Below, piece after piece: positions 21,437 through 49,843 of a DNA stretch of 64,000 nucleotides (within the stretch, counting starts at the first letter, position 1; each line of letters opens with the position of its first letter). This DNA comes from a virus (taxonomy: Duplodnaviria; Caudoviricetes). The stretch is taken from IMG/VR virus record IMGVR_UViG_3300024252_000005. One strand, given 5' to 3'. Under the pieces are notes generated by a model. The model did not search any database. It had not been told where the DNA came from and saw only the letters and a list, made by a program, of their open reading frames with translations. The position numbers and the translations under genes are program-made.

Positions 21437-21491
21437 AAAGCGCTTGTTATTAATATATAGTTAATATAAGAAATTAATTTGTGAGAGTTAT

Positions 21492-22967
21492 ATGAGTAAT
21501 AATTTATACATGGAAGCCATTGAAGCTGCAGAACAACTTAAGTTAGCTGCTGAAGATAAGGCTAAACAACAGATCATAGAATCTATGACACCTCATATCA
21601 AAGCACTTGTTGAGAAGAAGCTTATGTCTGAGTCTGATCAAGATGAGATAACTGATGAGATAACTGACGAAGACACAGATGAGTGTGGAATGATGGCTGG
21701 TCAAGAAGAGATTGTTGATGAAGTAACTTTAGATGAAGATTCAAGAAGGATCTTATCTAAGTTTATTAATAGCAATGCTCAAAGATCAGCTTTACAAGAA
21801 AAAATAGAAGAGCTTCGTGAAGGCTTACGAACTCTAAGAAAAGCTATGTTATTGTCAGAAAATGTTAAAAATTCTTCATCTACAAAGAGAAGAATTAATC
21901 TTCTTTACAAAAATATTATAAAAGAAGCAGTAAATATTAAAAGAAGCAGTATAATTAAAAATGATAAAAGCTTATTAAAAGAATATTTTAAATTAATTAA
22001 GGAGTTAGAAAATATGTCAAGACGACGCTCAAAAAGAAGTAACTATGTAAATGAGTCTCTCGAAGATCTTCTAGAAATGAACCTCTTCGAAGCTGATGAA
22101 GACGATGAAGCTGATGAATCAGAAGAAGAAGTTGAAGCTGATGAAGAAGAAGTAGAGTTTGAAATGCCAGAAGACTTAGACGAAGCACCTGCAGGAGACG
22201 TTTCAGCAGAGACAACTGTAGAAGAGCTAGCAATGATGGCAGGACTCATGGGCGGCTCAGATGAAGTTGCTGAACTCGACCTTGAAGTAGATGAAGACCT
22301 CGAGCCTGAGATGGAAGAAGAAGGCATCTTCGAGATGGATGAAATGGATCAAGAAGTTGAGGGAGATATGTATGAGTCTAGACGTCGTGACAGAGTATTA
22401 GAAATTGATGAAAACATGCTTAGAAGAGAGATTGGTAGAATGAAGGCAATTCGCGAGGGTGAAGCTAAAGATATGGCATCACACTTTGGCGGAGGTTCAT
22501 TAGAAGGTGAAGCATTTGTTGATGGCGTTGAGCTCAACAAGTTGCACGAGATGAGAACTAAAGCTGCAAAGGTTGTGCGCATGAATCGCCAGCTATCAAG
22601 CAAGCTTTCTCAGTACAAAAAGGCACTTCGTGGAATGAAGGGTCAACTTTCGGAGATGAATCTTTTCAATGCGAAGCTTCTTTATGCTAACAAGCTCATG
22701 CAGAACAGAGACCTTTCAATGAAGCAGCAGCGACACATTGTTGAGTCACTTGATGAAGCAAAGACCTTAGGTGAGGCAAAGATTCTTTTCGAGAGCCTTT
22801 CTAAGTCACTTGTAAGCGGTCGTAGAACCCGTAAGGGTGGAAACCTTTCAGAAGGTGCTTTGAGAAGACCAGCTGGTTCTTCTTCAAGACCAGTTCGCAG
22901 TGCACAGCCACTTACCGAATCTGTAGCACTTGATCGTTGGGCAACACTCGCTGGGATCAAGAAGTAA
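21492..22967 (+). CDS. Prohead scaffolding/core protein (T4 gp22-like)
   Basis: Acidic coiled-coil protein immediately before the MCP; many L-x-E sites; C-terminal NAKLLYANKL...ESLDEAKTLGEAKILFESL...DRWATLAGI. Confidence 0.75.
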   Translation: MSNNLYMEAIEAAEQLKLAAEDKAKQQIIESMTPHIKALVEKKLMSESDQDEITDEITDEDTDECGMMAGQEEIVDEVTLDEDSRRILSKFINSNAQRSALQEKIEELREGLRTLRKAMLLSENVKNSSSTKRRINLLYKNIIKEAVNIKRSSIIKNDKSLLKEYFKLIKELENMSRRRSKRSNYVNESLEDLLEMNLFEADEDDEADESEEEVEADEEEVEFEMPEDLDEAPAGDVSAETTVEELAMMAGLMGGSDEVAELDLEVDEDLEPEMEEEGIFEMDEMDQEVEGDMYESRRRDRVLEIDENMLRREIGRMKAIREGEAKDMASHFGGGSLEGEAFVDGVELNKLHEMRTKAAKVVRMNRQLSSKLSQYKKALRGMKGQLSEMNLFNAKLLYANKLMQNRDLSMKQQRHIVESLDEAKTLGEAKILFESLSKSLVSGRRTRKGGNLSEGALRRPAGSSSRPVRSAQPLTESVALDRWATLAGIKK

Positions 22968-23014: not shown

Positions 23015-24994
23015 ATGAGTTTTACACTTAAAACATTAACAGAAGGTATTAGAGACCGCCACGTGGGCCAGCAGAACAAGCGCCTCGTTGAGAAATGGTC
23101 TCGCACAGGTCTCCTTAGAGGCATGGAAGATGTAAACCGTGAGAACATGGCAACAATGCTTGAGAACCAGGCAGCTCAGGTTCTTCGCGAGAGCAACCTA
23201 ATGAGCAGCGGTGATGTTGGTGGTTTCACAAACATTGCTTTCCCAATCGTTCGTCGTGTTTTTGGTGGTCTTATTGCTAACGAGCTCGTCTCAATCCAGC
23301 CAATGAGCCTCCCAAGCGGTCTCCTTTTCTACCTCGATTATACATACGGTAGTGATGGCAATGGCTATAACTCTGGCGAGTCTGTTTATGGTGGACCAGC
23401 TGGAAAAGCAATTCAAGGCGGCGCTGATGCTACTGGTGGTCAATATGACCTAGTAGGTACCAGTTTTTCTCGAGTACGAATTAAGGCAAAAGACACAAGT
23501 GGTGCAGCTGAGCAAACATTGCCAGTTGATGCGTCAGCACGTCCTAACATTGCCGCGCTAGACGCAAATGAGTTGCATCTTCTTACTACTGAGCTTGGTG
23601 CATCAAACGCAGAAACAGATTCAGCTCTTTCTAGCACAAAATCTTTAAAAGTTACAAGCAGCCACGACTTATCATTAATACAGCATGATCCACAAATTAT
23701 TGACAGAATTAATGCTGGTTCTAATTATATTGCTTTACTTGTTCACCCTAACCTAACTGATACTGATGCACTTGATACTTTGGCGACTAAGCTCGACCCA
23801 GAGTATTTTAGAGAGATTTCTCTGGTAGGCACTTCAGGTACTGATGATAAAGATGTCGGCGATCAATTAGTAGTTCCACCTGATGCAGTACAATCATCAG
23901 CCCACGTTGCGGGTGGCGGTTCAGGTACAAAAGAAGTTGCTTTTAATGTAAAACGTCTGAATCAAATTGGTTCTTACACAAATAACGTCTTTACACCTGA
24001 TCCTTTGGTTGATGTTACCAGCGCAAGTGCAAGAATTTTATTTATTGTAGAAAAAGCAGTAGCTGCAGCAACAGCCCCTGTTAATCTATCAAATATAAAA
24101 ATGTCTTACGTTGAAGTTGACACAGTTGGATTTGCAGGTGGTGAAGCTACTGGAAGTCCTTCATTTGAGAGTAACATGAAACCAGCTGGAGACGAAATTT
24201 CTCCAGTAATCCCAGAGATTGACATCAAGATTGAGTCGATTCCTGTAACTGCACAAACACGTAAGTTACGTGCACGTTGGAGTCCTGAGCTTGCGCAAGA
24301 CCTTAATGCATACCACTCAATGGATGCTGAGGTTGAGCTTACTCAGATTCTTTCTGAGCAAATTGCTCTTGAGATTGACCGTGAGATTCTTGGTGATCTT
24401 CTTAACGGCGCAAAAGGCGCAAACTTCTTCTGGAGTCGTTCACCTGGCAAGTTCGTTAACAAGCGTACTGGTGCAGAGATTGCTCGTACATCATCTCTTA
24501 ACCCTGGGCCAGCTTTCACTGGTACAGTTCGTGAGTGGTATGAGACTCTTACTGAGACAGTTATCGATGTTGCTAACGAGATCCACAGAAAGACACTTCG
24601 TGGTTCTGCGAACTTCATCGTAGTTTCTCCTGACGTTGCAACTATTCTTGAGGCATCTGTACTTTACCGCCCAAGCTATAGCCTTGACGGTGACGGACAG
24701 GTTGGTGCACCATTCACAATGGGTGCAGAGAAGGTTGGTACTCTTTCTAATCGCTTTACCGTTTACAAAGACCCATACTTCCCACGCAACAAGATCCTTG
24801 TTGGTTATAAGGGCGGCTCTTACCTCGAGACTGGCTTCGTATATGCTCCATATGTACCACTCATCGTTACTCCTACAATCTTCCAGCCAGAGGATTTCAC
24901 CCCACGTAAGGGTGTTATGACTCGTTATGGTAAGAAGATGGTACGTGCTGACTTCTATGGTACTGTGACTTGTCTCGACATGAACATCATCTAA
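23015..24994 (+). CDS. Major capsid protein (T4 gp23-like, HK97 fold) with a large insertion domain
   Basis: LVEKWSRTGLL, FPIVRRVFGGLIANELVSIQPMSLPSGLLFYLD, TRKLRARWSPELAQDLNAYH, EIDREI and YAPYVPL...PRKGVMTRYG. Confidence 0.95.
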   Translation: MSFTLKTLTEGIRDRHVGQQNKRLVEKWSRTGLLRGMEDVNRENMATMLENQAAQVLRESNLMSSGDVGGFTNIAFPIVRRVFGGLIANELVSIQPMSLPSGLLFYLDYTYGSDGNGYNSGESVYGGPAGKAIQGGADATGGQYDLVGTSFSRVRIKAKDTSGAAEQTLPVDASARPNIAALDANELHLLTTELGASNAETDSALSSTKSLKVTSSHDLSLIQHDPQIIDRINAGSNYIALLVHPNLTDTDALDTLATKLDPEYFREISLVGTSGTDDKDVGDQLVVPPDAVQSSAHVAGGGSGTKEVAFNVKRLNQIGSYTNNVFTPDPLVDVTSASARILFIVEKAVAAATAPVNLSNIKMSYVEVDTVGFAGGEATGSPSFESNMKPAGDEISPVIPEIDIKIESIPVTAQTRKLRARWSPELAQDLNAYHSMDAEVELTQILSEQIALEIDREILGDLLNGAKGANFFWSRSPGKFVNKRTGAEIARTSSLNPGPAFTGTVREWYETLTETVIDVANEIHRKTLRGSANFIVVSPDVATILEASVLYRPSYSLDGDGQVGAPFTMGAEKVGTLSNRFTVYKDPYFPRNKILVGYKGGSYLETGFVYAPYVPLIVTPTIFQPEDFTPRKGVMTRYGKKMVRADFYGTVTCLDMNII

Positions 24995-25135: not shown

Positions 25136-26518
25136 ATGAAATGTATTATATGTGGATTTGAAGGAACTGGTAAAAAGCTTAGTAATCATTTGCAAAAAGA
25201 GCATAAGATTAGTAGTAAAGACTATACATTAAAGTTTCTATATAAAAACTATAACGGTTGCTTGAATTGCGGCAAAGAAACAAGATACGTCGCATTTACT
25301 TTTAAAAAGTATTGCAAGGATTGTGCTAAACTAGGGATGAAAGAAGGTGGATGTAAAGGTGGTAAAGCTGAAGCATGGAACAAAGGAAAGACAAAGGAAA
25401 CTGACAATAGAATAAAAGGCTTATTAGGTAAAGACAATCCTTTTTGGGGAAAAAGTCATTCTGAAGAAGTTAAGAATAGAATAAGTATGACGAAAAGACT
25501 GGGCGGTATTGATATACTAGAAAGAGTCATGAAAAGAAATGATGCTTTTGAGATATTAACACCTTTAGACAAATATTTCAGTAGACAGCGTCAATATCTA
25601 GACTTTAAATGTAAAAAATGCGACTTTGTATGCAAAAAGACTTTGCAAGCGTTTGAAAGAGGTTCATTATGTCCAAAATGTTATCCTATATCTAAAAGCA
25701 AAGCAGAGCTAGAAGTATATGTTTATGTTAAGAGCTTAGGATTTAACGACGCTGTAAGCGGTGATAGAAACATAATAAAACCTAAGGAAATAGATATAAG
25801 TTTAAAACAGAGTAATTTTGGTATTGAATTTAATGGTCTATATTGGCATAGCGAAGTTATTGATAGGACAACAAAGAATGATCTATTAAACAAGACATTG
25901 CTATGTAAAGAAGTAAACATGAAGTTGATGCACATATTTTCAGACGAATGGGAATTCAAAAGGGATATATGTAAAAGTATGATAAAGAATAGATTAGGCT
26001 TGTCAAATAAAATATGGGCAAGAAAATGTAAAGTTGTTAATCTAGATAAAAAGCAATTTGATAGTTTTATGAATGATAATCATATCAGCGGAAGTGTTAA
26101 TAGTAGTGTTAGACTTGGTTTGATTTATAATGAAGAAATCGTAAGTGTTATAGGATTTAGAAAGCCAAGACAAAAAAAGTGGACTGGTTATTGGGAAATA
26201 AGTAGATTTGCAAACAAGTTAGATTATTCTGTAGTAGGAGGTTTAAGTAAGTTAATTAAAAACTTTTTAAAGAATGAGAGTAACAAGAAAATAATGACTT
26301 ATGCTGATAGAAGATTTGGAGAAGGTTTAGGATATGAAAAGGTTGGGTTTAAGAGTTTTGGTGATAGTGGAATAGATTACTGGTATTCAGATGGAATAAA
26401 TAGATATGATCGATTTACTGTTAAGTCTGACGATAAAATGTCAGAAAAAGAGAAAGCAGCAGAAATGGGTTTATATAAAGTTTGGGGATGCGGAAGCAAT
26501 ATATGGACTATTAATTAA
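25136..26518 (+). CDS. Free-standing homing-endonuclease-like protein (Zn fingers, NUMOD3-like motif, PD-(D/E)XK/Vsr-like nuclease, C-terminal GNAT/Mom-like domain)
   Basis: C2H2 CIIC...HLQKEH; CLNC..CKDC; NPFWGKSHSEEVKNRIS; CKKC..CPKC; EIDISL...GIEFNGLYWHSE; C-terminal NHISG...EISRF...GGLSKL...TYADRRFGEGLGYEKVGF. Confidence 0.75.
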   Translation: MKCIICGFEGTGKKLSNHLQKEHKISSKDYTLKFLYKNYNGCLNCGKETRYVAFTFKKYCKDCAKLGMKEGGCKGGKAEAWNKGKTKETDNRIKGLLGKDNPFWGKSHSEEVKNRISMTKRLGGIDILERVMKRNDAFEILTPLDKYFSRQRQYLDFKCKKCDFVCKKTLQAFERGSLCPKCYPISKSKAELEVYVYVKSLGFNDAVSGDRNIIKPKEIDISLKQSNFGIEFNGLYWHSEVIDRTTKNDLLNKTLLCKEVNMKLMHIFSDEWEFKRDICKSMIKNRLGLSNKIWARKCKVVNLDKKQFDSFMNDNHISGSVNSSVRLGLIYNEEIVSVIGFRKPRQKKWTGYWEISRFANKLDYSVVGGLSKLIKNFLKNESNKKIMTYADRRFGEGLGYEKVGFKSFGDSGIDYWYSDGINRYDRFTVKSDDKMSEKEKAAEMGLYKVWGCGSNIWTIN

Positions 26519-29566: not shown

Positions 29567-29968
29567 ATGTGGTATATCTACGTTGTTGTATGTTTTGACA
29601 ATTCATTGTATTGTGGTATAACTACAAATCTAGAAAGAAGATTAAAACAGCACAATGGTGAGATCAAAGGAGGCGCTAAGTATACTAGAGGTAGAAGGCC
29701 TTGTCAATTTGTATATACTAAAAAGGCAGCCAATAGATCAGCTGCCTCTAAAGAAGAATGTAAATTCAAAAAGTTAAGCAGGAAAAATAAACTAATATTC
29801 CTACTTAAAAATAATTATGAGCCCATATCAGGTGAAGGTGCGTCTTCAGAAGATTCTTCGCCGGCGGGTACAGGCATATCATCGCAATCTTCACCTTCTT
29901 CAAGTAATTCTGGTTCGCAAGCAGGATCTGTCTCTGGTTGTGGTTCATCACATCCTTCTCCAGCTTGA
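29567..29968 (+). CDS. GIY-YIG nuclease (UPF0213/SLX1-like) with an antisense-overlap C-terminal tail
   Basis: WYIYVVVC...LYCGITTNLERRLKQHNG...GGAKYTRGRRP...ASKEE. The last ~50 codons run antisense to 29815..30294. Confidence 0.8.
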   Translation: MWYIYVVVCFDNSLYCGITTNLERRLKQHNGEIKGGAKYTRGRRPCQFVYTKKAANRSAASKEECKFKKLSRKNKLIFLLKNNYEPISGEGASSEDSSPAGTGISSQSSPSSSNSGSQAGSVSGCGSSHPSPA

Positions 29969-30294
29969 AACTCAGGTGAACAATCTTCAATTTGATCGCC
30001 GGCAACAACTTCACCTGCTGGAAGAACTAAGTCTCCTGCAACTTCTGGCTCATCGCCAGCAGATACCAAATCTCCTGCTACAATTGGCTCTTCACCTGCA
30101 TCAGAAGTTCCTGAAGCAGATTCTTCGCCAGCAGCCTCACCTGCTGATTCTCCTGCCATGGTCTCTCCAGCTTGTACTCCAGAGTCGCTAGCTTGGGGAG
30201 GTTCGTCTACATCTTCATCAGACTCGCAACCAGAACTGAACAAAGACGTGAATACAATTAAAATTGCTAACAAAAAAGATCTAATCTTTAACAT
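29815..30294 (-). CDS. Acidic low-complexity lipoprotein (the only well-supported minus-strand gene)
   Basis: AGGAG SD on the minus strand (30302-30306). Basic N-terminus, hydrophobic core and lipobox-like FSSG-C; AGE/AGD repeats; three further Cys near the C-terminus. Confidence 0.75.
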   Translation of the reverse strand: MLKIRSFLLAILIVFTSLFSSGCESDEDVDEPPQASDSGVQAGETMAGESAGEAAGEESASGTSDAGEEPIVAGDLVSAGDEPEVAGDLVLPAGEVVAGDQIEDCSPEFQAGEGCDEPQPETDPACEPELLEEGEDCDDMPVPAGEESSEDAPSPDMGS

Positions 30295-30313
30295 ATAATT
30301 ACTCCTAGTAATG

Positions 30314-30396
30314 ATTATTAATAAAAAAATTTTATTAATAAAAAAATATTATTAATAAAAAAATATTATAATAAAAAAATATTATAATAAAAAAAT
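30314..30396. repeat. Five tandem copies of a 16-17-bp pure-AT unit, ATTAT(T)AATAAAAAAAT
   Basis: Copies at 30314-30330, 30331-30347 (starts TTT), 30348-30364, 30365-30380 and 30381-30396, in the divergent intergenic region. Confidence 0.9.
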
Positions 30397-30433
30397 ATTG
30401 AAATTATAATTAATTTATGTAAGGAGTAATTAT

Positions 30434-31365: not shown

Positions 31366-31632
31366 ATGGAACCAAATCTTGTGTTATCAATAGGAACAAT
31401 CATGTCAGTCATAGGACTATTTTATTCTTGGCATAAAGACTCAAAGGCCAATGCTCGAGAAGTTGCGCAGCTTACTGCAAGAGTAGATTCTTTAGAAGCT
31501 AGAGCAAAGCAAACAGATGAAGTATTACAAGAGTTATTAAGAGCTACACAAGATATTAAGGTTGCATTAGCTAGAATAGACACAAAGTTGACTAGCTTAG
31601 AGCAGGAATTTAATAGAAGTTTGCAAAATTAA
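31366..31632 (+). CDS. Single-TM coiled-coil protein, holin/XhlA-like candidate
   Basis: 88 aa; N-terminal TM LVLSIGTIMSVIGLFYSW followed by a heptad coiled coil; AAGGA SD. Confidence 0.45.
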   Translation: MEPNLVLSIGTIMSVIGLFYSWHKDSKANAREVAQLTARVDSLEARAKQTDEVLQELLRATQDIKVALARIDTKLTSLEQEFNRSLQN

Positions 31633-31670: not shown

Positions 31671-31916
31671 ATGAAGTTGACATCAAAAATGCTAAGAAGA
31701 ATGATTAATGAAGAAATGAATAGAGAGCGATCTATTAAACGTCGACGACGCAGACTTGCTGAAAGCGCTGATCGACCTGTACGTGTAACGCCTCAGTATA
31801 TTAATCGTCTTATTAGAGAAGAGTATGCAGCATTTCAAAAGAAGCAAAGATTAGCTGAATCTCGCCGTAGAAGAGTTGCAAATGCAAGTCGTAGAAGAGC
31901 TTTGTCTAGATATTAA
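31671..31916 (+). CDS. Small Arg-rich protein with an internal duplication, candidate DNA-condensing internal protein
   Basis: 81 aa with AAGGAG SD; KLTSKMLRRMINEE...RRLAES repeats as RVTPQYINRLIREE...QRLAES. Confidence 0.65.
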   Translation: MKLTSKMLRRMINEEMNRERSIKRRRRRLAESADRPVRVTPQYINRLIREEYAAFQKKQRLAESRRRRVANASRRRALSRY

Positions 31917-32011: not shown

Positions 32012-32341
32012 ATGCAATTAGCACCAGAACAAGTTCAATCAATTAATGTTTTACTTTCCGCAGTACAGGTAGCACAGCGTCGTGGCGCTTTTTCTTTGCA
32101 AGATGCACATACATTGCAAGAGGCAATTGATGCTTTGGTACCGCGTGAGGAGCAAGAGAGACAAGCAGCTGCATCACAGGCTGCCGACGCAGAGGGTGGT
32201 GAAGGCGAATCAGCAGTGAGTATGCCTGAGGGTGTAGAGGTAGATGTAGCTGATGGAGATGAAGATTGCTGTGATGATGAAGAATGTGACAGTGATGATG
32301 ATTGTGAGCCGGCTGCAGATTCTGAGCAAGATTTAGTTTAG
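32012..32341 (+). CDS. Small phage protein with an acidic C-terminal tail
   Basis: 109 aa; LLSAVQVAQRRGAFSLQDA helix followed by an Asp/Glu/Cys-rich tail; AAGGA SD. Confidence 0.65.
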   Translation: MQLAPEQVQSINVLLSAVQVAQRRGAFSLQDAHTLQEAIDALVPREEQERQAAASQAADAEGGEGESAVSMPEGVEVDVADGDEDCCDDEECDSDDDCEPAADSEQDLV

Positions 32342-32375: not shown

Positions 32376-32402
32376 GGGCGCGTTGTGAAAATGCGCCTTT
32401 TT
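32376..32402 (+). terminator. Rho-independent terminator after 32012..32341
   Basis: GGGCGCGTT-GTGAA-AATGCGCCT: 9-bp stem with G-U pairs, followed by a T run. Confidence 0.65.
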
Positions 32403-32414
32403 AGTAATATATAG

Positions 32415-32498
32415 TTTTAGGCCCGTTGCGAACATAACAGCTGACCCCGCCAGTGCATCGGAATCATGCGGACAAGTTTATCCTAAAAGGAGGAAGTT
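32415..32498 (+). ncRNA. Candidate structured 5' leader RNA (unassigned)
   Basis: 33 of 54 nt in 32420-32473 are G/C, inside an AT-rich genome. TTTTAGG (32415-21) pairs with CCTAAAA (32482-88), which overlaps the AAGGAGG SD. Inner helices GTTG/TAAC and GCAT/ATGC. Confidence 0.4.
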
Positions 32499-32750
32499 AT
32501 GGCAGAAGAAAAGAAAGCTGCACCAAAGCAGAAAAAGAAAGCTGCAGTCTCAAAAAAAGAGGCACCAAAACCAGCGGCTGAAAAAACAGTGTCTAGTAAT
32601 AAACTTAAAGTTGGTACTTTAGTTATTACAAATAGAGAAAAAGAATGTAAAGTACTGGAAGTAGTTAGTGACAATCTTTTTTTGCTTAAAAGAACAGATG
32701 ACACAGGTAAATTATATAGCTTAACCAAAGATCAATTCAATATTAAATAA
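32499..32750 (+). CDS. Small protein with a Lys/Ala-rich N-terminus and an SH3/KOW-like barrel
   Basis: 83 aa with AAGGAGG SD; KKAAPKQKKKAAVSKKEAPKPAAEK followed by LKVGTLVIT...CKVLEVV...FLLKR...LYSL. Confidence 0.6.
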   Translation: MAEEKKAAPKQKKKAAVSKKEAPKPAAEKTVSSNKLKVGTLVITNREKECKVLEVVSDNLFLLKRTDDTGKLYSLTKDQFNIK

Positions 32751-32762
32751 TAAGGAGAAAAA

Positions 32763-33269
32763 ATGCCAAAAGTAATAGTAACAGATTCAAAAGGTCTATA
32801 TCAAGAGACAGGTTCAGGTGTTGATATTCAAAGCACATGTACAATTAGAGCAGCAAAAATACAAAATGTAAATACAGCAAAAAACCTAACTGCAGCTGAT
32901 TGTGGAACAATAATTTTAGGTGCTGCAATAGGCACAGCTCAGGCCGCCGATACAGGATTTAATGTAAATTTGCCGGCTCCAGCAGCAGGTTTAAGTTTTC
33001 ATTTTATTCTTAGACCACCTTCGATAGCAGATAATGCTAATGCAGCAATTACAGTTACAACAACTTCAGACGGAACTACAGCTGCAAACTTAGCTGTGGG
33101 TATGGTTACTGTAAATGAAGTACCAACAAACGTTGTAGGTGTTGTAGACGTTTTAACTTTTGTCCATAACGCAGCAACTTGTGGAGACAATGCAAAATTT
33201 ATTTCTGACGGAACGAACTGGTTCGTTCAGGCAACGGGAGATGCTGCTGGATCTGTTACATTAGCTTAA
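32763..33269 (+). CDS. Probable virion structural protein (beta-rich, Ala/Thr-rich)
   Basis: 168 aa with AAGGAG SD; LTAADCGTIIL...VNLPAPAAGLSFHFI and a terminal FISDGTNWFV, as in phage fibre/decoration modules. Confidence 0.55.
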   Translation: MPKVIVTDSKGLYQETGSGVDIQSTCTIRAAKIQNVNTAKNLTAADCGTIILGAAIGTAQAADTGFNVNLPAPAAGLSFHFILRPPSIADNANAAITVTTTSDGTTAANLAVGMVTVNEVPTNVVGVVDVLTFVHNAATCGDNAKFISDGTNWFVQATGDAAGSVTLA

Positions 33270-34862: not shown

Positions 34863-36389
34863 ATGTCAACGTTTGCATTAACAACAAAGGCAACACCTTT
34901 TGGAGTTTATGATAATGATTCTCATTTTCAAGAAGACGCAGATGGTGTCGTACTATATGTTAAGAGAAGACTTGGCGACGACGTTCTATCTGTTGAGCTA
35001 ACAAATAAACAAATATGGGCAAACTTTGAAGAGTCTGCTCTTGAATTCTCAAAACAAATTAATGCTCACCAAGCTGAGTCTTATATGTCAAATATCCTCG
35101 GCTTGAACGCAGGACCAAATGTCACATTTAAGAAAAATGACTTTGGACATTACTACTGGCTAGATACAGCACATAAAGAAGACGATAGGATTCATGATGC
35201 TGCAAGCAACTTAGACGATAGAAAAAACGTTCAAGTACTTTTAGTACAAAACCCTTCAGATCCTAGATTTAGGTTGCAAAATAAAAAAGGTAAGTATAAG
35301 ACAATAGGACCTGATGATAGTCTTACTATAGCTATTACAAGAAATATTGAAGCTCATACAGATACAGCAACTACAGTATCACCTATAGAAGATAAAAAAG
35401 TTGGCCCTAATGGCCAAGAACAGAAGTTTCCAAGAGAAACTTTGGAGTACTTGTTAAGAAGAGCAGAACCTTATGCATCTGAAGCATTTGTTGGCGGCGT
35501 TAGCAACTCTTTAAGAGGTTATATACCTTTAACACAAGACAAGCAAGATTACAACATATACGAAGATATGATAATTCCCGATGGCACAAATGAGCTAACG
35601 TTATCTTCTTTTAACGGAGACCCAGCACAAAAATCTTTATTTAATCCAGTCTATAAGGATAAGTTGTTACCTACAGCTACAGCAACAAAAATAAAAGTTA
35701 ATGAAGTTTTTCACTTTTCACCCCAAGCAGCTTATCGTTTCTTTGACACTACATCAGCTATCAACTATTTGAACAATCAGTTTTCTTTTGAGTCGTTTAC
35801 ACCAGAAACAGTTTTCTATGTGTTACCTGTCTTTGAAGACTTATTAAGGGCAGGCCAGCTAGATATATCTAATAGAGTAAGAAGAAGTAATTACAGCTAT
35901 AGGATTCAAGGACAAGAGATTAGAATATACCCACGTCCAACTCAGTCAAACCCTATGAACTTATTCGTCAAGTTTTCTTTTCCTTCAGATCCTTTTAAGC
36001 CAAACTTACCTTACGATGATGATTCAATTGAAGGCGTTTCAAACTTATCAAATGTGCCTTTTGATAATGTTTCTTATAGCGGTATAAATCAAATGTCAAG
36101 ACAATGGATAAGGCAATATACTTTAGCGTTATGCAAAGAGACACTTGGTCTTATTAGATCAAAGTTTAGTTCAGTGCCTATTCCAGGAAGTGATGTACAA
36201 CTAAATGGATCTGATTTAATAAGTCAAGGTAGAGAAGACAGACAGAGATTAGCTGAATCGTTAGGCGAAACTTTAGACAAGTTAACATATCAAAAGTTAT
36301 TAGAGACAGATGCAGCTCAAAGTGAATCAATGATGAACATACTTAAGAGAGTACCTATTCCTAACGGAAGAGCAATAATTATAGGATAG
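34863..36389 (+). CDS. Neck/head-tail adaptor protein (T4 gp13-like)
   Basis: VLYVKRRLGDDVLSVELTNKQI...WIRQYTLALCKETLGLIRSKF...QLNGSDLISQG; contains an internal insertion of about 100 aa. Confidence 0.75.
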   Translation: MSTFALTTKATPFGVYDNDSHFQEDADGVVLYVKRRLGDDVLSVELTNKQIWANFEESALEFSKQINAHQAESYMSNILGLNAGPNVTFKKNDFGHYYWLDTAHKEDDRIHDAASNLDDRKNVQVLLVQNPSDPRFRLQNKKGKYKTIGPDDSLTIAITRNIEAHTDTATTVSPIEDKKVGPNGQEQKFPRETLEYLLRRAEPYASEAFVGGVSNSLRGYIPLTQDKQDYNIYEDMIIPDGTNELTLSSFNGDPAQKSLFNPVYKDKLLPTATATKIKVNEVFHFSPQAAYRFFDTTSAINYLNNQFSFESFTPETVFYVLPVFEDLLRAGQLDISNRVRRSNYSYRIQGQEIRIYPRPTQSNPMNLFVKFSFPSDPFKPNLPYDDDSIEGVSNLSNVPFDNVSYSGINQMSRQWIRQYTLALCKETLGLIRSKFSSVPIPGSDVQLNGSDLISQGREDRQRLAESLGETLDKLTYQKLLETDAAQSESMMNILKRVPIPNGRAIIIG

Positions 36390-37052: not shown

Positions 37053-38273
37053 ATGGCAACAAGATTTGACAAACTAAAAGAAGATAACAACTCAATAGTT
37101 TCAGGCTATGAAGGTAATACGCATCCAGAAGATTATACAATTCCTTCTTGCGGTTTAGAAGATCTAGATTATGCTATATTCAATCTTTTCAATTCACAGA
37201 TACCTTTGTATTATGATCATCATGGTGAACAAAAAAAGGTCCCAGTTATATTTGCAACAGGTGAAAGATTTGCAATTCTAAGAAGAAATAAACCTTTAAC
37301 AGACAAAAAAGGTGCACTTATTCTTCCACTTATATCTATTACAAGAAGTGGTTTAGACAACGTACCACAAAAAGGAATTGCAAACAACCAAATGTTTCCT
37401 GAAGTAATGACAAGGAGAATATCAAGAGATAACACAGAATGGCGACAGTTAAACAACTTCGAAGGGTTCGAACATATAACACATACTGTCAAAAAAAATC
37501 AAACAGACTTCAATCTAAAACCTCAATTAGAAAACAATATATACGAAACAATTGAGATTCCGCCGGTTAAATATTTTGGTGCGACATATGAAATATCTGT
37601 TTGGTCTTCTTTTACGCAGCAGATGAACAATATTATAACGACAATAATGAGCGCATATACAATTAATCCCGGCCAGCAATTTAGAGTTGAAAGTAAATCA
37701 GGATATTGGTTTCCTGCATTTATTGAGTCTTCATTCAATCAAGATGCAAACTATCAGGACTTTACAGATGCTGAAAGGTATATAAAGTATAATATGACAA
37801 TGACAGCAACCGGTTATATTTTGGCACCTAACATTATGAATGGAAAAGTTGCTTTAAAGTCAATGATATCAGCACCTACGCTTTCTTTTGAGACTCTAGT
37901 AGATGACTTAGATGCATTTCCAACTGTTGGCGGGATTCCTGTAAATGACCCTAATGCTAGGATACTTGATGATTTGAGACATGAAGGAGATACTAATATA
38001 GCACAAAGAGTAGGAGCTGATCCTATTAGTTCTTTAGAGAGTCTACATAGCGGAGACAAATCAGGAGCATTTATAACAGGCGAATCTGACTTATTGCCTT
38101 ATGATGTTGTTGGTGAAAGAAGTAGTAGAGCAACAAAGAAGAGAAAAGTTTTGATTAAAGATAAAAACGGTGAAACTGTAACAATTAAAGCTGATGTTAT
38201 ATCTAATGGAGAAACAATTTACGATCAAAAGTATGCTGAAAAAGTATTTAATATTTCAAATAGAGATAAATAA
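37053..38273 (+). CDS. Tail terminator/completion protein (T4 gp15-like)
   Basis: Position between neck and sheath genes; KVPVIFATGERF...LILPLISITR...YEISVWS. Confidence 0.6.
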   Translation: MATRFDKLKEDNNSIVSGYEGNTHPEDYTIPSCGLEDLDYAIFNLFNSQIPLYYDHHGEQKKVPVIFATGERFAILRRNKPLTDKKGALILPLISITRSGLDNVPQKGIANNQMFPEVMTRRISRDNTEWRQLNNFEGFEHITHTVKKNQTDFNLKPQLENNIYETIEIPPVKYFGATYEISVWSSFTQQMNNIITTIMSAYTINPGQQFRVESKSGYWFPAFIESSFNQDANYQDFTDAERYIKYNMTMTATGYILAPNIMNGKVALKSMISAPTLSFETLVDDLDAFPTVGGIPVNDPNARILDDLRHEGDTNIAQRVGADPISSLESLHSGDKSGAFITGESDLLPYDVVGERSSRATKKRKVLIKDKNGETVTIKADVISNGETIYDQKYAEKVFNISNRDK

Positions 38274-38340: not shown

Positions 38341-41300
38341 ATGGCAGAGCAGACATTTAAGTCTCCAGGCTTTTTTGAACGTGAAATAGAAGTAATTAAA
38401 AGACCTATAGTAAGAAATAATAGTGTACCAGTTGGATTAGTTGGACCGTCTGTAAGAGGCCCTGCTTTTGTGCCCACTACAGTATACTCAAGAGAAGAAT
38501 TTATTAGAATATTTGGAGCACCTAGCAGAAGATTGCTAAGTGGACACGCAGCAGCAGAATTTTTTAGAAACGACGGCAAAGCATTAACATTTTGTAGGAC
38601 ACTAGGATCAGGAGTTTTCAACTCATCAACAGATAAATCAGCAGGTGCTGGATTTAAACTAACTCATACTTATAATAATAACACTGATGCAGAACCAGCT
38701 TTTGGCGCAGTAAGATTTATTGCAGCTCAACACACAGTAGTTAATCCAGAGTTTTTAAGTCTTGGTATTTTTAACGACAATGATTCACATACAACAACTG
38801 CTGATTTATTAGGAGGTGTCTTAGACAGTGATGCATCAAATGATAGCACACATCCTCTAGAAGGCATTGGCGAAGGCGGAGGTACTGCTGATTTTACTGT
38901 TGAACTAGTAAGAGCAATGATTTTTACTCATAAAGATTATACAACTACAGTTACAGCTAATGGCTCCGGTAATGATCATGTTGCTGCTTCAAGCTCTAAG
39001 TTTACTATATATCTAATAGAAACAGGTAACATTGGGAGCCCTGCAACTATTAGCTATGAAGTTTCTTTGGATCCAGAAGCTTCTGACTATATTGCGAACG
39101 TTTTAAATACAGATCCTCTTTCATTTGACGATAAAAAGCATATGTTATATGCACATTTCCCAGTTGACGCCGCAGTTGCTTCTGTTGGGTCAGGTAATGT
39201 TGCAGTTCTTCAAGGAGACAGTACAAATGCACCAAAGTTTGGTAATTTTTCAAGTAGATTTGTAGCACCTAAAACTCCTAAGTTTATTTCTCAGCCATTT
39301 GGCAAAAAAGAGTATGATCTATTTCACTTTGAGTCACTTGATGATGGAGCTTATGCAAATGAAAATTATAAGATATCAATATCTAATTTAAATGCAAGCA
39401 CAGATCCAACAAATGATTTTGGCACATTTACAGTTACAATAAGAGATTTAAAAGACACTGATGAGTCTCCTATAGTTTATGAGTCATTTACTCAGTGCTC
39501 TTTAGATCCAAATGCTACAAACTTTATTGCAAGAGTTATTGGCGATCAAAAGGTATTCTATAACTTAGATACAACTAATCTTGATGAAAGAAGACTTGTT
39601 AGAGAAGGATCGTTTAGGAACGTTTCAACAAGAGCAAGAGTTGTAATGAGTGACGATGTACTAAAGGGTGAAGTACCAGATACAGCTCTTCCTTTTGGTT
39701 ATAGAGGAGTTCCTGCGTTATTACTAAACACCGGTGGAACAGACAATAGAACAGCTAATACATTATTTACTAAAGGAAGAGCTGTTGATACCCCACATTT
39801 AGATCATTCTGTTTTACCACCTCTTCCTTATAGATTCAAGATAACAAAGGGAGACATTAGAGATGGCTCTTCATATAATCAAACATTTACAGGCGAAGCA
39901 TCAGCTTTAGAAGCTGTAAGTTTTGATTTACACTGGGGACTAATGCCTACAAGAGTTAAAGACATAAATAATCCAAATAGTGGCACAGTTTTCAATGAAT
40001 TATTATCTAACTACACTAAGTTCTTAGGAGCTGATGGTGATGTTGTAAAGACAGGCGCAATTGCTGACTCTCATAATAATAACAAGTTTAGTTTGGCAAA
40101 GGTTGCTTTAAACAAAACATCGCTTTCAGATATTACTGGAACAATAAACGATATATTTAAAAATGCTGTATACATAAGAAATGCAGATGTTGATAAAAGT
40201 ACAATATATGATTCTTCAAAGCACACTATAAAGATGGCTGCAGGAAGTGATAATTTAGCTTCTGAATTAGAAAGCGTAACATTAACAAAGTTATTATCTG
40301 AAGATGTTGTTAAGTTTAATAAATATAGTTTAGTTGCAAAGTTTACAGCACCTTTCTATGGTGGCTTTGACGGGTTAAACATTTTAGACAGTGACTCATA
40401 CTTCATGACAGACAAAGCTGCTTCTACAGAAACAGGAGTTGGAAAAGCAACAGCATCAGGATTTCCAAGTGGTTTAGCTGGAACAACTAACGCAGTAATG
40501 CAAGGTTCAGAAGATGCTAATAACGTTATTGCTTCTTATAAGAATGCTATAAGATTAATGACAGATGATTTAGTTGTTAATCATAATGTTCTTGTTGTTC
40601 CTAACGTTAGAGATCCTTTCGTAACAGACTTTGCAAAGCGAAGAGTAGAAGAATACGGTAAAGCGCTTTATGTAATGGACCTTCAGCAGTTTGATTCTGC
40701 TTCTACAAGAATATTTGTTAATGAAAGAGGTATTGCTTCAGGAAGAGCAGATGTTGATACAACTTCATCAAAGTTTGATACTCGTGAGGTTAATTCATCA
40801 TATGTAGCATCTTATTTCCCAGACGTAATGGTTCAGGATAGTGGAGATGATGATACAGCTGCAGAAAACAGTAGAAGATCAATCAGGGTTCCTTCTTCAA
40901 TTGTAGCTCTTGGTGCATTGGCAAAAACTGATGAGGTTTCGCAGCCCTGGTTTGCTCCTGCTGGATTTACAAGAGGAGCTCTAAATACAATTACGTCTTT
41001 GGATGTAAGATTAAACGCAGAGGATCGTGATACACTTTATGAGGCTCGAATTAATCCTATTGCAAACTTCCCTAACAAGCAATTTGTTATCTTTGGTCAG
41101 AAGACATCACAGTTAGCAAGAACTGCTTTGGATCGTGTCAACGTAAGAAGGCTCGTTTTGGAAGTGAAGCGTAGAATTGAAATTATTGCACAAGGTCTAT
41201 TGTTTGAGCAAAACAACAAGACAACAAGAGATAACTTTATTGCAAATTCTTCAGGTTCATTAGCAACAATTCAGTTAGAGCAAGGAATTGAAGACTTTAG

Positions 41301-41445
41301 AGTTATTATGGATGAAACAAATAATAACGACGAAGATGTTGACAACAACAGATTGAATGGTAAGATTATTATTGTTCCAACTCGAGCAATCGAATTTATT
41401 GCAATTGATTTTGTAATTACTAATGCAGGTGTTGAATTTCCCTGA
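38341..41445 (+). CDS. Tail sheath protein 1 (gp18-like)
   Basis: SPGFFEREI, GPAFVP, PWFAPAGFTRG, FGQKT, DRVNVRRL, LFEQN, PTRAIEFIAIDF. Confidence 0.9.
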   Translation: MAEQTFKSPGFFEREIEVIKRPIVRNNSVPVGLVGPSVRGPAFVPTTVYSREEFIRIFGAPSRRLLSGHAAAEFFRNDGKALTFCRTLGSGVFNSSTDKSAGAGFKLTHTYNNNTDAEPAFGAVRFIAAQHTVVNPEFLSLGIFNDNDSHTTTADLLGGVLDSDASNDSTHPLEGIGEGGGTADFTVELVRAMIFTHKDYTTTVTANGSGNDHVAASSSKFTIYLIETGNIGSPATISYEVSLDPEASDYIANVLNTDPLSFDDKKHMLYAHFPVDAAVASVGSGNVAVLQGDSTNAPKFGNFSSRFVAPKTPKFISQPFGKKEYDLFHFESLDDGAYANENYKISISNLNASTDPTNDFGTFTVTIRDLKDTDESPIVYESFTQCSLDPNATNFIARVIGDQKVFYNLDTTNLDERRLVREGSFRNVSTRARVVMSDDVLKGEVPDTALPFGYRGVPALLLNTGGTDNRTANTLFTKGRAVDTPHLDHSVLPPLPYRFKITKGDIRDGSSYNQTFTGEASALEAVSFDLHWGLMPTRVKDINNPNSGTVFNELLSNYTKFLGADGDVVKTGAIADSHNNNKFSLAKVALNKTSLSDITGTINDIFKNAVYIRNADVDKSTIYDSSKHTIKMAAGSDNLASELESVTLTKLLSEDVVKFNKYSLVAKFTAPFYGGFDGLNILDSDSYFMTDKAASTETGVGKATASGFPSGLAGTTNAVMQGSEDANNVIASYKNAIRLMTDDLVVNHNVLVVPNVRDPFVTDFAKRRVEEYGKALYVMDLQQFDSASTRIFVNERGIASGRADVDTTSSKFDTREVNSSYVASYFPDVMVQDSGDDDTAAENSRRSIRVPSSIVALGALAKTDEVSQPWFAPAGFTRGALNTITSLDVRLNAEDRDTLYEARINPIANFPNKQFVIFGQKTSQLARTALDRVNVRRLVLEVKRRIEIIAQGLLFEQNNKTTRDNFIANSSGSLATIQLEQGIEDFRVIMDETNNNDEDVDNNRLNGKIIIVPTRAIEFIAIDFVITNAGVEFP

Positions 41446-41485: not shown

Positions 41486-44400
41486 ATGGCTGGACAAGGC
41501 TCAGCAAGAGTAACTCTCAGAGAAATAGATTTATCACAAGTAAGAGATCCGGAGCAATTGCCTCAAGGAGTACCAGCTGCTGTTGTTGGGCCTGCTAAAA
41601 GAGGTCCTGCTTTTGTCCCCAAGACATTTGCAACAATTCAGCAGTTTGAAGAGACTTTTGGCTCACTAAGACAAGTTGATCGTGAAAGCAACGCAAATAG
41701 ATTTGGTCCTTTAGCACTTAATGAGTGGATGAGAAATGCGCAAGCAGGAACTTTTCTTCGCGTTTTAGGTGTTGGTAGTGGAACAGGTCAAAAAGATTCT
41801 TCAGGACGCGTAGCAGGAGCTGGCTTTGTTGTTGGTGACAAGGTATCACATGATGCTAGCAATGATTTGCAAAATAACCCGCATGCAGCAATTGCTAATA
41901 CAGATGTTGTTGGTGCAACAAAAGCAGGAAGAACACATTTTCTTGGCTGTTTTATGAAAGATGAAGCAGGTAGCACATTTTTGCAAGATGCAGGAATTCA
42001 AACAGGAGGAGCTGCAGCTACTTTGGTTATTGAACTAGGTGCTCAACCTATAGTTGGTGATACAATTAAGCTCGATGGCGTTGATACAACCGGTGATCTT
42101 AATGGTGACGTCACTTTTACTTTTGGAGGTGAAGGAGGTCAATCTGCAATAGGCGCTAATGTTGTTGCAACACTTCAAAACTTAAAGAATAAAATTGAAG
42201 CAGACGCACAATTAGGAAATGCAGGAGCCCATCAAATTAAAGTAACAGCTGTTGAAGACGTAAACAGTAATAATGCATTAGCTAGAGTAACACTAGAGTC
42301 AGCATTTCCAAATGTTTTAAATAAAACAAATGACTGTGTTGCAAAGTTTAATATAAATCCAGCAGGAGAAGGTAATGACTTACTGGTAAAAGTTGGTGAT
42401 AAAACAGCTTCTGTGACTGGTGCTACTTTTAATTACGGACAAGAAGGTGGTAGTGGAGCAAAATGCGTAATCACAATTACAGATGTTCCTGCTAATAATT
42501 CAAGTTTAGAGCTTAAATCGTTAGACAACGACAATCTTGGAGGACTAACATCAGCTACTGTAGTTTATGCATTTAAAAGTGCATCTGTTACTGACGCTGA
42601 TCAAACTTCAGGTGAAACCGGAAGATACTCTTCTAATGAAACTAACTCTGTTTTTGTTGATGCTAGCGGAACTAAAGAACAAGCACTAGCAAATTTAAAA
42701 GCAGCTTTAGATAGAGCAGTTTCAAATCACACAGGAAAATATACAACATCTATTTCTGACGATGGACTTTCTTTAACAGTAATACAAAAACAAAAAGGAA
42801 AAGCTGGCCGTGCCGATCACTCTGGTAGCGCAAATGTTTCACTAACCAATCAAGTCTCTAACTTGCAAATAAGCGTAGGATCAGATGCAACTGATAGAAC
42901 TTCGGGAGATGCAACTGCAGAATTTGGAACAGGAAGAACTTCAGGTTTTTTCTTTGGCGGAGATAATGCAGGTTCTACATCGTTTACAATGACACTTACA
43001 GGTCAGCCTAATGATAATGATCATATAAAAATTAGAGCACTTGATAATAATCATTCAAGTCTTACTAATGAAAATTTTGTCTTTGAATCTGTTACAAATG
43101 CAAGTGGTAGAGTTAACGGTCAAAAGACGGGTAATCCAGGAGCTGCTCTTGCCTTTAATGGATCAGATCCAAATAATCACTTCATAACAGTTATAATAGG
43201 CGATGACTTACAAGAAACTTTGTATAATTTTAAAAATGCTCTTAAGCATTCTAATACAGTTAATACAAAAACTGACGTTACAGCTTTAGTAGATGATAAT
43301 AGTAACAGTATAAAGATAACATTAAATTTTGGAAATGGTAAACTGCAAAGTGTCCTTAAAAACGTAGTAGATATAGCTGATACAGCTACTTTTACAAATC
43401 CAGCTGGTGATACACTTACAGGCAACTTTGGTCCTAAAACAGTTAACTTCACAGGCGGTGGAGGTGCAGCAGCACCAGTTGTTAGAGGCATTCTTATGTC
43501 GCCACAAGGTGTCGTTCCAACAATAGACGTTACCGATGATACTTTTAACGGGACAGACGGAGGAGGCTTTGCAGAGTTAACTCATCTAAGGGTTACAGCA
43601 GCAAGTGGTGCAAATATCAAGAGCTTTGGATCAACTCAAGGAACTCATTTAATGGGTTATGAGCTTGGTAAAGTTGACATATCAAGTGATCAATCTTTTA
43701 CGTTGCTTCTTAACGGTTTTAGCAATACAGATGAACCTGCACAACTATCATGCTCTTTTAATCCTGAAAGTGTTAACTACTTCGCAAAAGTGTTAAATAC
43801 AGATCCAGAAAAAATTGAAGAAAGAGGTCACTATCTTTATTCACATTGGGATATTGATCCTGCAGTAGCTAAAGTAAATGTTTCTGGCGTACTATCAGCG
43901 GCAGGAACAACAACAACTGAAGAAAACGCAGCTTTCTGCTTGCACTCAACAGGAGCAAGAGCAACTGAAGCAGCTAACTCTCCTGCATTTGAAAAGTTTG
44001 ATACAAGATTTAGAACTGCTAGATCTCCATGGATTACTTCACAAAAATCTTTAGATCAAAAGTTATTTAGACTTTACTCTTTAGATGATGGTGCTGTTGG
44101 CAACGATAGATTTAGAATTTTAATATCTAACATTAGAGCAGGTGCAACATTAGAAGACTACGGTTTCTTTGACTTAACTTTAGAAGATTTCTATAGTGAT
44201 CCAGTAAGTGGAGAAGCTTTAGTAGCTTGGAAAAATTTAACACTTGATCCTGATAGCAGAAACTTTATTGGTAGAGTTATTGGCGATAAACACATGTATT
44301 ATGACTTCGATAGAGATCTAAGTAGACAAAGACTTGTTGAAGAAGGTATGTTTGAAGTTAGAAACAAATATGTAAGAGTAGAATTATCAGATGCAGTTAA

Positions 44401-49600: not shown

Positions 49601-49843
49601 TTACTTCAATCATATGTAGATCTTGGTATTATACGAGACTTTTTTGTTAAATTAAATACAGGAACATCTAACAAAGAAAAAGAAGATTATCTAGATTATA
49701 TTCTTAGAAGTAGAATTGGAATATCTTTGTTTGGCAAGCTAGATAATAATATTATAGCACTTTCTTTAGATGAAATAATAAATTCTACTCAAAATAATTT
49801 AACAGAAATATCATCAATAGATATAATGATACCATCTATATAG
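46604..49843 (+). CDS. Tail sheath-like protein 3 (divergent)
   Basis: GLIGTSLKGPAFVP, FTRVLGIG, FHAIDDG, LNLDPDS and GGFDGVNI are shared with sheaths 1 and 2; the C-terminal PWFAPAG and RVNVRRL motifs are degenerate. Confidence 0.75.
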   Translation: MSQFRNDENIDANQSSSREFKEENEISLTDDTLGLIGTSLKGPAFVPHTFQEFGKSDDVLNTYENVFGSPLDMDHPDLSPLSAQEWFNQGGEQLAFTRVLGIGKTGIPNNEGIVEGSGFIVGGNVVSGSINEGYSEYNKFATAGGSNGKTNFIGGHYKNKQYTGIENGVTKIAPFNDYLEQIGESQSSVSLITDVLFCPQGTKILLQKDNTQNGLQSLVRLRENIVLQSFSDATLSFNTNIQYPYLFIKGLGNKDFNVLKDYKRIRYVKKREFRESYINNDLSYFLDKGNLRYANFSLNFLDNLSFESNKNFIFNGSSNSISYEDFQSSYKSASTSWIVSQPTNRENISDNRVNMHNNCVKLFKFHAIDDGEISNRYRIRITPKKLGNVKTEDWSIFDVAVWEYNKKENTFIDLFKFTDLNLDPDSESYIGLVFGTQKTYFDFNENEVITSGRYKQTNNHLIVEINEKIEFKDVKSYELMPSGFMPYPRINTSGITNPENYNVLQKPVDYVWNILIGKEDKLIKEKYWGVLFDNISTEQIDKTILNNVYKFKLIKKEKSNNFRNYYWYTKYFQDNYLVKSKNVWVRDLEDNDSDLTNSFFHLEKIMYIPAEEDDPVQKNWEIAMYRRDGKKISDITSLSSLKIQYKYVNIDELLKSDDENNSIHSEYLSFDFFTCGGFDGVNILDNDKRLMSQTALVKELEDENQNGQIEGPTYFTYKKAHDIMVDDANSEFDILSIPTIGHHYLNKKISTEANKKGRYLTVLNSPEYSNHVDNTGINNIPTSAGIIKDYNHFYIEPGESDVNERFKTKPNIGKYIDSGTMTSLDSIKNNYYDNRYTLNVLNTSEGFLDNELYEDKRFVVMPAFIAIKSFASGIASGPVDNVNSFNDSLIEVKRVINNSLNSPDTDEYSKLIKFSLKSETNANFVVSKSIFNDSNIIKLNSGNTSLITRNSLSRFAHNTRIILNIKKNIKYMIFQNDLLFNNNAKVNNINTLLNFRLNTLLQSYVDLGIIRDFFVKLNTGTSNKEKEDYLDYILRSRIGISLFGKLDNNIIALSLDEIINSTQNNLTEISSIDIMIPSI

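Follow-up and report, generated by a model that had tools for sequence, protein, structure and literature searches.

A conserved leader RNA with a predicted nested double pseudoknot at the start codon of a putative virion-protein operon in uncultured marine T4-like phages

The DNA analysed here, a window of 64 kb, is part of the 153-kb record of an uncultured virus with a GC content of 31.8%, in which one strand carries nearly all genes. T4-type virion genes are found on both sides of the leader described below (Table 1). Based on the capsid protein, the nearest cultured relative is the Flavobacterium phage immuto, with an identity of only 47%, and the leader element is absent from this phage, the nearest cultured capsid relative checked. 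Upstream, the leader is separated by an intrinsic terminator from the gene of a 109-aa acidic protein, the tail of which is Cys-rich and very acidic (DEDCCDDEECDSDDDCEP). The terminator comprises a 9-bp stem with 5 GC pairs and a T tail, and its stem is kept in the relatives by changes on both arms, e.g. GGTGCAC...GTGCACC.

Table 1. Positions of the genes and leader elements in the window; pairings are those of the fold deduced from the comparison of relatives
Feature	Position	Strand	Remark
gp23 capsid protein	23015-24994		T4-type virion gene
109-aa acidic protein gene	32012-32341		upstream of the leader and its terminator
Intrinsic terminator of the 32012-32341 gene	32376-32403	+	stem-loop 32376-32398 and T run
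TAATATATA box	32405-32413	+	late-promoter-like -10 element
P1, 5' strand CCGUUGC	32423-32429	+	pairs with 32455-32461
P2, 5' strand CAUAAC	32433-32438	+	pairs with 32496-32501
P3, 5' strand GCUG	32440-32443	+	pairs with 32451-32454
L3, 7-nt loop ACCCCGC	32444-32450	+	its last four bases, 32447-32450, pair with 32468-32471 in the pseudoknot stem
P3, 3' strand CAGU	32451-32454	+	
P1, 3' strand GCAUCGG	32455-32461	+	
Conserved linker AAUCAU	32462-32467	+	between P1 and pseudoknot strand
Pseudoknot stem, 3' strand GCGG	32468-32471	+	
Conserved single strand ACAAGUUUA	32472-32480	+	
P4 hairpin UCCU-AAA-AGGA	32481-32491	+	stem 32481-84/32488-91
P2, 3' strand GUUAUG	32496-32501	+	includes the AUG of the 32499 gene
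First gene, 83-aa basic protein	32499-32750	+	
Second gene, 168-aa MPxV..KGLxQ family protein	32763-33269	+	
gp13-like neck protein	34863-36389		T4-type virion gene
gp15	37053-38273		T4-type virion gene
Tail sheath genes	from 38341 onward		T4-type virion genes

Some further observations concern the surroundings of the leader. The gp23 homologue is long (659 aa), while the Pfam Gp23 match covers residues 390-649 only, and the next ORF (25136-26518, 460 aa) contains a NUMOD3 motif, which is known from DNA-binding proteins of the homing-endonuclease type. Just upstream of gp23, ORF 21492-22967 is headed by a TAATATATA box at 21451 and includes an acidic repeat with a 9-nt period at 22089-22324 (GAAGCTGATGAAGAC...). 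The repeat, the box and the place before gp23 indicate that this ORF likely encodes a scaffold- or prohead-core-type protein. Between the minus-strand ORF 29815-30294 and the plus-strand genes that follow it, a tandem array made up of A and T only (30309-30411) repeats every ~16-17 nt (TAATAAAAAAATATTAT...). This array could be a cluster of promoters, an element resembling an origin, or else a divergent regulatory region. Before the leader unit lie two small late ORFs (31366-31632 and 31671-31916), of which the 88-aa one showed weak spanin/holin-like PHROG matches, with a faint DUF2730 match in a relative, while the 81-aa one is Arg-rich. Further downstream, three large neighbouring ORFs (38341-41445, 41486-45925 and 46604-49843, with 1034, 1479 and 1079 aa) share DNA segments that recur ~4.5 kb apart (repeat families D4, D5, D9, D11 and D12), and the first of them matches tail-sheath families. 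The shared ~4.5-kb repeats suggest paralogous sheath-like genes with large inserts.

Two genes directly follow the leader. The first encodes an 83-aa protein, the basic tail of which is rich in Lys, Ala and Pro, while its small C-terminal part resembles a beta-barrel; no family could be assigned to the protein, and its homologues (76-100 aa) are encoded either directly after the leader or after fibre-like genes in the relatives. For the 168-aa protein, 69 homologues from marine metagenomes were found. Its AlphaFold model is a beta-sandwich (pLDDT 72.4) with a weak fold match to a phage capsid spike (9ny6_C, E 1e-4, TM 0.37) and further weak matches to tailspike N-terminal and T4 gp9/gp10 modules, so that it is probably a spike- or fibre-like virion protein. 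Its gene lies just upstream of the gp13-like neck gene, both in the window and in the relatives. No RNA-binding domain was recognised in either the 83-aa or the 168-aa protein.

Three kinds of gene were observed directly after the leader: a 76-100-aa basic protein starting with MAEE or MTEE, as in the window, a 132-168-aa Pro/Glu/Lys-rich protein starting with MAT(S/R/T), or a member of the MPxV..KGLxQ family itself. In many relatives the leader stands directly before a gene of the 32763 type or of a different small basic protein, with the 32499-like protein further downstream. Most contigs comprise one to three MP-family genes after the leader, followed by a small basic protein and then by the gp13-like neck gene. 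The constant companion of the leader is thus the gene of the 168-aa type and not that of the 32499 type. The leader always precedes MPxV..KGLxQ-type genes together with that of a small basic protein and, judged by the fold likeness of the 168-aa protein, appears to head a virion fibre- or spike-type module. Some homologues of the 168-aa gene carry merely a short AT-rich leader, from which it follows that the element is not obligatory. In five contigs (L028, L037, L039, L098 and L100), two tandem MP-family genes (~160 and ~310 aa) were found ~40-1500 nt downstream of the leader; they have the N-terminal motif MPSVEYT.KGLVQK in common while their C-terminal parts differ, pointing to a conserved peptide that anchors the protein in the virion and to distal domains that can be exchanged.

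The original prediction, made on the window alone, had pointed to a non-coding GC-rich island between the terminator and the AAGGAGG Shine-Dalgarno (SD) sequence of the 32499 gene, and this description turned out to be exact. The G+C count is 33 of 54 nt (about 61%) for 32420-32473. At least 60% GC over 54 nt is reached at only three places in the 64-kb window, the other two of which are coding, and 61% is reached by 0.06% of all 54-nt windows of the genome. Both BLAST and a covariance model found the leader in a single copy in its 153-kb genome, which rules out a repeat or mobile element. Folding of the single sequence gave no more stability than that of shuffled ones (MFE -16.7 kcal/mol, z = +1.21), the same holds true for the nested part of the conserved fold, and P2 and P4, taken singly, are weak helices (-3.5 and -2.2 kcal/mol). 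A search for tRNA and tmRNA found none.

Rfam was searched with the entire window, with stretches of 601 nt and 101 nt, and also with the L001 subtype (see below), both at gathering thresholds and at E ≤ 10, and nothing relevant was found, in agreement with the original prediction, which had not recognised the sequence as a known riboswitch. Weak matches to snoRNA-like (C/D-box) families at 32228-32332 were rejected as chance, originating from GAUGAUGA codon repeats in the acidic coding repeat of the 109-aa gene. The freshwater-2 model (RF02980, gathering threshold 49.9 bits) gave no match on the leader of the window; on the L001 subtype it reached 13 bits (E = 6.1) over the RBS part only, which is below the threshold.

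Homologues of the two downstream proteins were found in marine metagenomes only. In the contigs fetched via these homologues, the leader was nearly unchanged while its flanks had diverged. Exact-pattern scans with pieces of the core yielded 17 to 31 IMG/VR contigs and 75 metagenome contigs, so that the core is present on more than 100 marine phage or metagenome loci, many of the IMG/VR ones being duplicates of JGI loci. From these uncultured marine T4-like phage contigs, 66 distinct close variants of the leader were obtained, and a scan with a one-base variant gave two diverged subtypes (L001-like and L138/L153-like). As the relatives were gathered by exact matches to the conserved core, the sample is biased toward conserved copies. 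Compared to the following coding sequence (65-83% identity) and the upstream DNA (69-73%), the leader showed an identity of 95-99%.

Outside of this group the element appears to be missing. Neither the leader nor the 168-aa protein nor the L001 versions gave a match in 50,697 cultured-phage records (INPHARED), and among ~185,000 prokaryotic species genomes (one per species) the leader was absent save for two chance matches to the core, one in a Tropicimonas genome and one in an Acidobacteriaceae MAG, both in DNA of 60% GC and without leader context. Scans for additional variants of the pseudoknot stem (GAGG, GGGG) returned four chance matches only. For a very diverged copy, L002, no relatives were found, and this copy is regarded as suggestive only. 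One ENA metagenome contig, L025, has a remnant of a Nextera adapter (…AGATGTGTATAAGAGACAG) fused to the leader at positions 1-51; this is an assembly artefact, and its 5' flank was left out of the promoter counts.

The alignment of the 66 sequences supports one common set of helices by compensatory changes. Altogether, 98.3% of the cells in paired columns are paired and 7 of the 19 pairs change on both sides, a degree of covariation which none of 500 shuffles reached. Controls with slid partners showed 31-43% pairing with zero or one pair changed on both sides. P1, P3, the pseudoknot stem and P2 also hold in the 58 distinct elements of the three subtypes, as parsed by regular expressions, and RNAalifold returned P1, P3 and P4 independently. 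Conservation and covariation upstream of homologues, named as a test by the original prediction, were hence both found.

P1 is paired in 98.4% of its cells, with changes on both sides in three of its seven pairs; the copy in the window has a single U.U mismatch (32426/32458). In the 58 elements, 16 different combinations of its strands occur, e.g. CUAGUGC/GCACUAG, CCAAUGC/GCAUUGG, CCCUAGC/GCUAGGG and CCGGCAC/GUGUCGG, as well as CCGAUGC/GCAUCGG and CCGGUAC/GUAUCGG. P3 is paired throughout (100%), its pair 32440:32454 being G.U, G-C, A-U or U-A, and it is represented by GGCG/CGCU and GGCG/CGUC in the diverged subtypes. The stem between the loop L3 and its downstream partner was found as CCGC/GCGG in 44, as CCAC/GUGG in 13 and as UCGC/GCGA in one of the 58 elements, and it was never unpaired. 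P2 forms 6 of 6 pairs in all 66 variants, with a compensatory change of UAUAAC with GUUAUA in four of them and CAUAAU (G.U) in one. In subtypes B and C it reads CAUAA/UUAUG and GCAUAA/UUAUGC (the pairing in subtype C was checked by eye), that is, the register is shifted and the AUG is still paired. P4 covers the first half of the SD (AAGGAGG, 32487-32493) and is present in both the MFE fold and the RNAalifold result. In 11-12 distinct rows it changes from UCCU/AGGA to UCAC/GUGA, which alters both sides of two pairs. P4 occurs in the window-like subtype only and is absent in B and C. Many of the paired columns are invariant, so that P2 shows two kinds of change and the pseudoknot stem three.

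The unpaired parts are also very strongly conserved: the linker reads AATCAT in 48 and AATCTT in 10 elements, and ACAAGU, within the single strand 32472-32480, is common to all three subtypes. G.U pairs are frequent at two positions, which indicates that selection acts on the RNA of the + strand. A site acting at the level of DNA was ruled out, G.U pairs being tolerated on the + strand only. The same applies to a coding or uORF reading, as CAGCGC variants no longer have the GUG at 32453, 10 variants carry UUG in place of the AUG at 32466, and indels of 1-2 nt in J1/2 and in the loop of P4 break any frame. Three additional pairings were considered and rejected. For the 5' GG (32420-21) with the CC of L3 (32445-46), subtype B offers no support, having AAGC with an unchanged L3. 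Both GUUUAU (32476-81) as a decoy partner for CAUAAC and the extension of P4 given by RNAalifold (AAGUUU with GGAAGUU) involve almost only invariant bases, show no compensatory changes and are absent in subtypes B and C. Judged by the comparison of relatives, P1, P3, the pairing of the loop to its 3' partner, P2 and P4 together constitute a nested double pseudoknot, and the GC-rich stretch is a strongly conserved folded RNA.

This fold is not the one originally proposed. That proposal comprised an outer helix (TTTTAGG/CCTAAAA) closing on the SD, a CCGC/GCGG pairing as the alternative to two inner hairpins, and binding of the RNA by the 32499 protein. All four complementarities named there are present in the sequence of the window, and a small basic 32499-like protein is encoded in the module of most relatives. 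Only the pairing of CCGC (32447-50) with GCGG (32468-71) is conserved and covaries, and it turned out to be the pseudoknot stem of the conserved fold instead of an alternative to it. The outer helix is fully paired in only 10 of the 66 variants, and the flank of the SD is closed by the local 4-bp hairpin P4 instead. The GTTG/TAAC hairpin has one pair unpaired in 45 of 46 distinct rows and the GCAT/ATGC hairpin in 16 of 46, neither with covariation, and the latter would require 32455-58, which belong to the covarying P1. Furthermore, the gene after the leader is often not of the 32499 type. The comparative data have already refuted the three helices, and we give the proposal as a whole practically no credence. 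Its more general part, a cis-acting leader for 32499/32763, stands in so far as the region is conserved, structured, covarying and uncatalogued.

The box upstream of the leader offers an indication of where its transcript might begin. On the gene strand of the genome, TAATATATA occurs in nine copies, the majority of which are followed by a start codon at a short distance. Five copies lie in the window, four of which have ~29-33 nt from the box to the ATG, while the copy of the leader has 85 nt. The box is present in 54 of the 66 leader variants, and a spacer of 5 nt between the box and a conserved (A/C)GG is kept in 61 of 65. The late promoter of T4 is TATAAATA. By analogy, transcription likely starts at about 32419 (the A of AGGCC), and this predicted start is exactly where the sequence conservation begins. 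The leader would then be unusually long (85 nt from box to ATG compared to ~30 nt), with the knot directly at its 5' end. A start at this point would also remove most of the 5' strand of the outer helix, as the original prediction had itself cautioned for a start near 32420.

From these findings we infer, with moderate confidence, that a late phage mRNA has this stretch as its 5' untranslated leader (~32419-32498, together with the AUG), and that the leader would exert a knot-based translational control of a virion-protein operon via a trans-acting factor. P1 and P3 would form a bent hairpin, the 7-nt loop of which pairs by its 3' half with the GCGG ten bases downstream of P3. The bulged strand CAUAAC would pair with GUUAUG and thereby lock the start codon in P2, while P4 would mask half of the SD in the window-like subtype. 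With the AUG in P2 and half of the SD in P4, the folded state should hinder binding of the 30S subunit; in the proposed mechanism it blocks it. As in autogenous operators, the structure of the leader includes the initiation codon (P2) and half of the SD (P4). The yield of the operon would be set by the stability of the knot, and this in turn by the trans-acting factor; the weakness of P2 and P4 alone is as expected for helices that need the remainder of the knot, or a factor bound to it, to be stable. Since the regulated genes are structural, a protein would be a more likely effector than a small molecule, for instance an unassembled product of the module or an RNA-binding protein of phage or host. 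Precedents for translational control of this kind are the S4 alpha-operon pseudoknot, the T4 gene 32 leader and the autoregulation of the P22 scaffolding protein. Altogether, it is assumed that the leader probably controls the amount of virion protein made.

Other explanations can be set against this control by a trans-acting factor. If the knot were the aptamer of a riboswitch, a small molecule or ion of the infected cell would stabilise P2 upon binding and turn translation off (or on). Conserved covarying helices are indeed joined to a platform at the RBS and start codon that overlaps both the AUG and the SD, the unpaired nucleotides in L3, AAUCAU and ACAAGU are very strongly conserved alongside these helices, and pseudoknotted translational riboswitches of similar size exist (SAM-II, SAM-V and preQ1-II). 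However, the same conservation of loops is found in compact tertiary folds and protein-binding sites, no riboswitch of Rfam matches, and the genes encode virion proteins instead of metabolic or transport functions; an operon of structural genes offers no hint to a metabolite, and the context points to no ligand. Such a riboswitch is thus considered quite improbable. A structure without any switch, on the other hand, would guard the late mRNA from 5'-end-dependent decay by its 5'-terminal knot and fix a low or standby-dependent initiation. 5'-terminal structures stabilise bacterial and T4 mRNAs, the fold starts 4 nt from the predicted 5' end, and the subtypes have no conserved alternative 'on' pairing in common, the GUUUAU decoy and the extension of P4 being limited to the window-like subtype and never covarying. 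For this purpose a weak SD or a simple hairpin at the 5' end would suffice, and the other TAATATATA-headed genes of the window manage with ~30 nt between box and ATG. An 80-nt knot that is kept near letter-for-letter over diverged phages, with the AUG in a helix, is more than stabilisation needs, and a purely constitutive role is therefore judged unlikely.

A different possibility arises from the order of the strands. The sequence P1-P2-P3-L3-P3'-P1'-(L3 partner)-P4-P2' corresponds to the nested double pseudoknot of HDV-like ribozymes, P1-P2-P3-L3-P3'-P1'-P1.1-(P4)-J4/2-P2', and minimal HDV-like ribozymes, including P4-less forms and the phage 'theta' form, occur in phages (PMC10879173). A self-cleaving ribozyme of this type would cut just 5' of P1 (near 32422/32423) and leave an mRNA with a 5'-OH, its processing being coupled to the release or masking of the start codon. 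The 7-bp P1 and the 7-nt C-rich L3 would fit, the L3 of HDV being UCCUCGC, and an invariant C (32473) follows the partner of L3 in GGACAAG, possibly as a non-canonical stand-in for the catalytic C. In HDV-like ribozymes, a G at +1 forms a G.U wobble at the foot of P1 by the cleavage site. Here, the first pair is C32423-G32461 in 57 of the 58 elements (G.G in one), and C32422 and A32462, which lie just outside it, are unable to pair. Instead of an adjacent 2-bp P1.1, the partner of L3 is a 4-bp stem with the 3' half of L3, 6 nt after P1', and the two nucleotides after P1' are AA, which gives no P1.1 of the HDV type. While a catalytic cytosine at the first position of J4/2 is a criterion for HDV-like ribozymes (PMC10879173), the junction between P4 and P2' reads GGAA, GAAA, GUAA or similar in the variants and never starts with C. 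The apparent diverged copy L002, parsed by hand, is devoid of any C in that region. No HDV-type Rfam family matched the 101-nt and 118-nt stretches of two subtypes at E ≤ 10, and cleavage would remove only ~4 nt from a transcript starting at 32419. A canonical ribozyme of this kind is accordingly rated as very unlikely. Unlikely, too, is that the knot represents a new functional class of RNA on the HDV fold, either as a ribozyme with a non-canonical active site (C32473, with a C-G pair at the cleavage site) or as a derivative of the ribozyme fold that senses a ligand or protein and acts as a translational switch. If this were true, abundant uncultured marine T4-like phages would time or dose a virion fibre or spike protein with it.

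The element is absent from Rfam 15 and from the cultured phages in INPHARED, yet widespread in uncultured marine myoviruses, and it is more conserved than the proteins encoded after it. The cases of translational control known from T4 are gp32, gp43 and RegA; to our knowledge, the textbook picture of this phage does not include an elaborate RNA fold that controls the translation of late structural genes. A description of the element was not found in the literature searched; it may be contained, under an anonymous number, in a survey of over 10,000 phage motifs (PMC10690425). The use of a double pseudoknot of HDV type at the start codon of an mRNA raises the question of whether a ribozyme fold was recruited for regulation or a new catalytic variant is present. 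With 83 nt, the element is short enough to be studied directly by biochemical and structural methods, and it could serve as a compact part for translational control.

Compared to known systems, the leader combines features of several RNAs. With SAM-II, SAM-V and preQ1-II it shares a similar size, a pseudoknot at or abutting the RBS and strongly conserved unpaired bases; these riboswitches are, however, single H-type pseudoknots, whereas the phage leader is predicted to be a nested double one, without metabolic context and without an Rfam match. A likeness to the leader of the E. coli alpha-operon (rpsM; RF00140) consists in a nested pseudoknot in the 5' leader which draws in the initiation region. 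In the alpha-operon, the folded state, stabilised by S4, blocks productive initiation. There is no similarity in sequence or model between the two; the alpha-operon encodes ribosomal proteins and its leader is bound by the ribosomal protein S4, whereas the phage leader precedes an operon of putative virion proteins.

The pseudoknot of gene 32 in T4, T2 and RB69 is likewise situated at the 5' end of an mRNA of T4-type phages, upstream of the RBS, and linked to translational control. Unlike the phage leader, it is a simple H-type pseudoknot that nucleates the binding of gp32 on an unstructured A/U-rich tract, whereas the double pseudoknot described here would itself pair with the AUG and precedes a late virion gene, not that of an ssDNA-binding protein. 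The T4 gene 32 element shares with the leader the lack of an Rfam model (PMC10690425). The closest match in shape is offered by the HDV-like ribozymes, which are found in phages as well; in them, too, the C-rich loop of 7 nt above a short P3 pairs with a segment 3' of P1, and the 3' strand of P2 lies at the far 3' end. The phage leader is shaped like the HDV fold and is not assigned to the HDV-like ribozymes, since it lacks three of their defining features; in contrast to them, it would make its P2 with the start codon of the mRNA.
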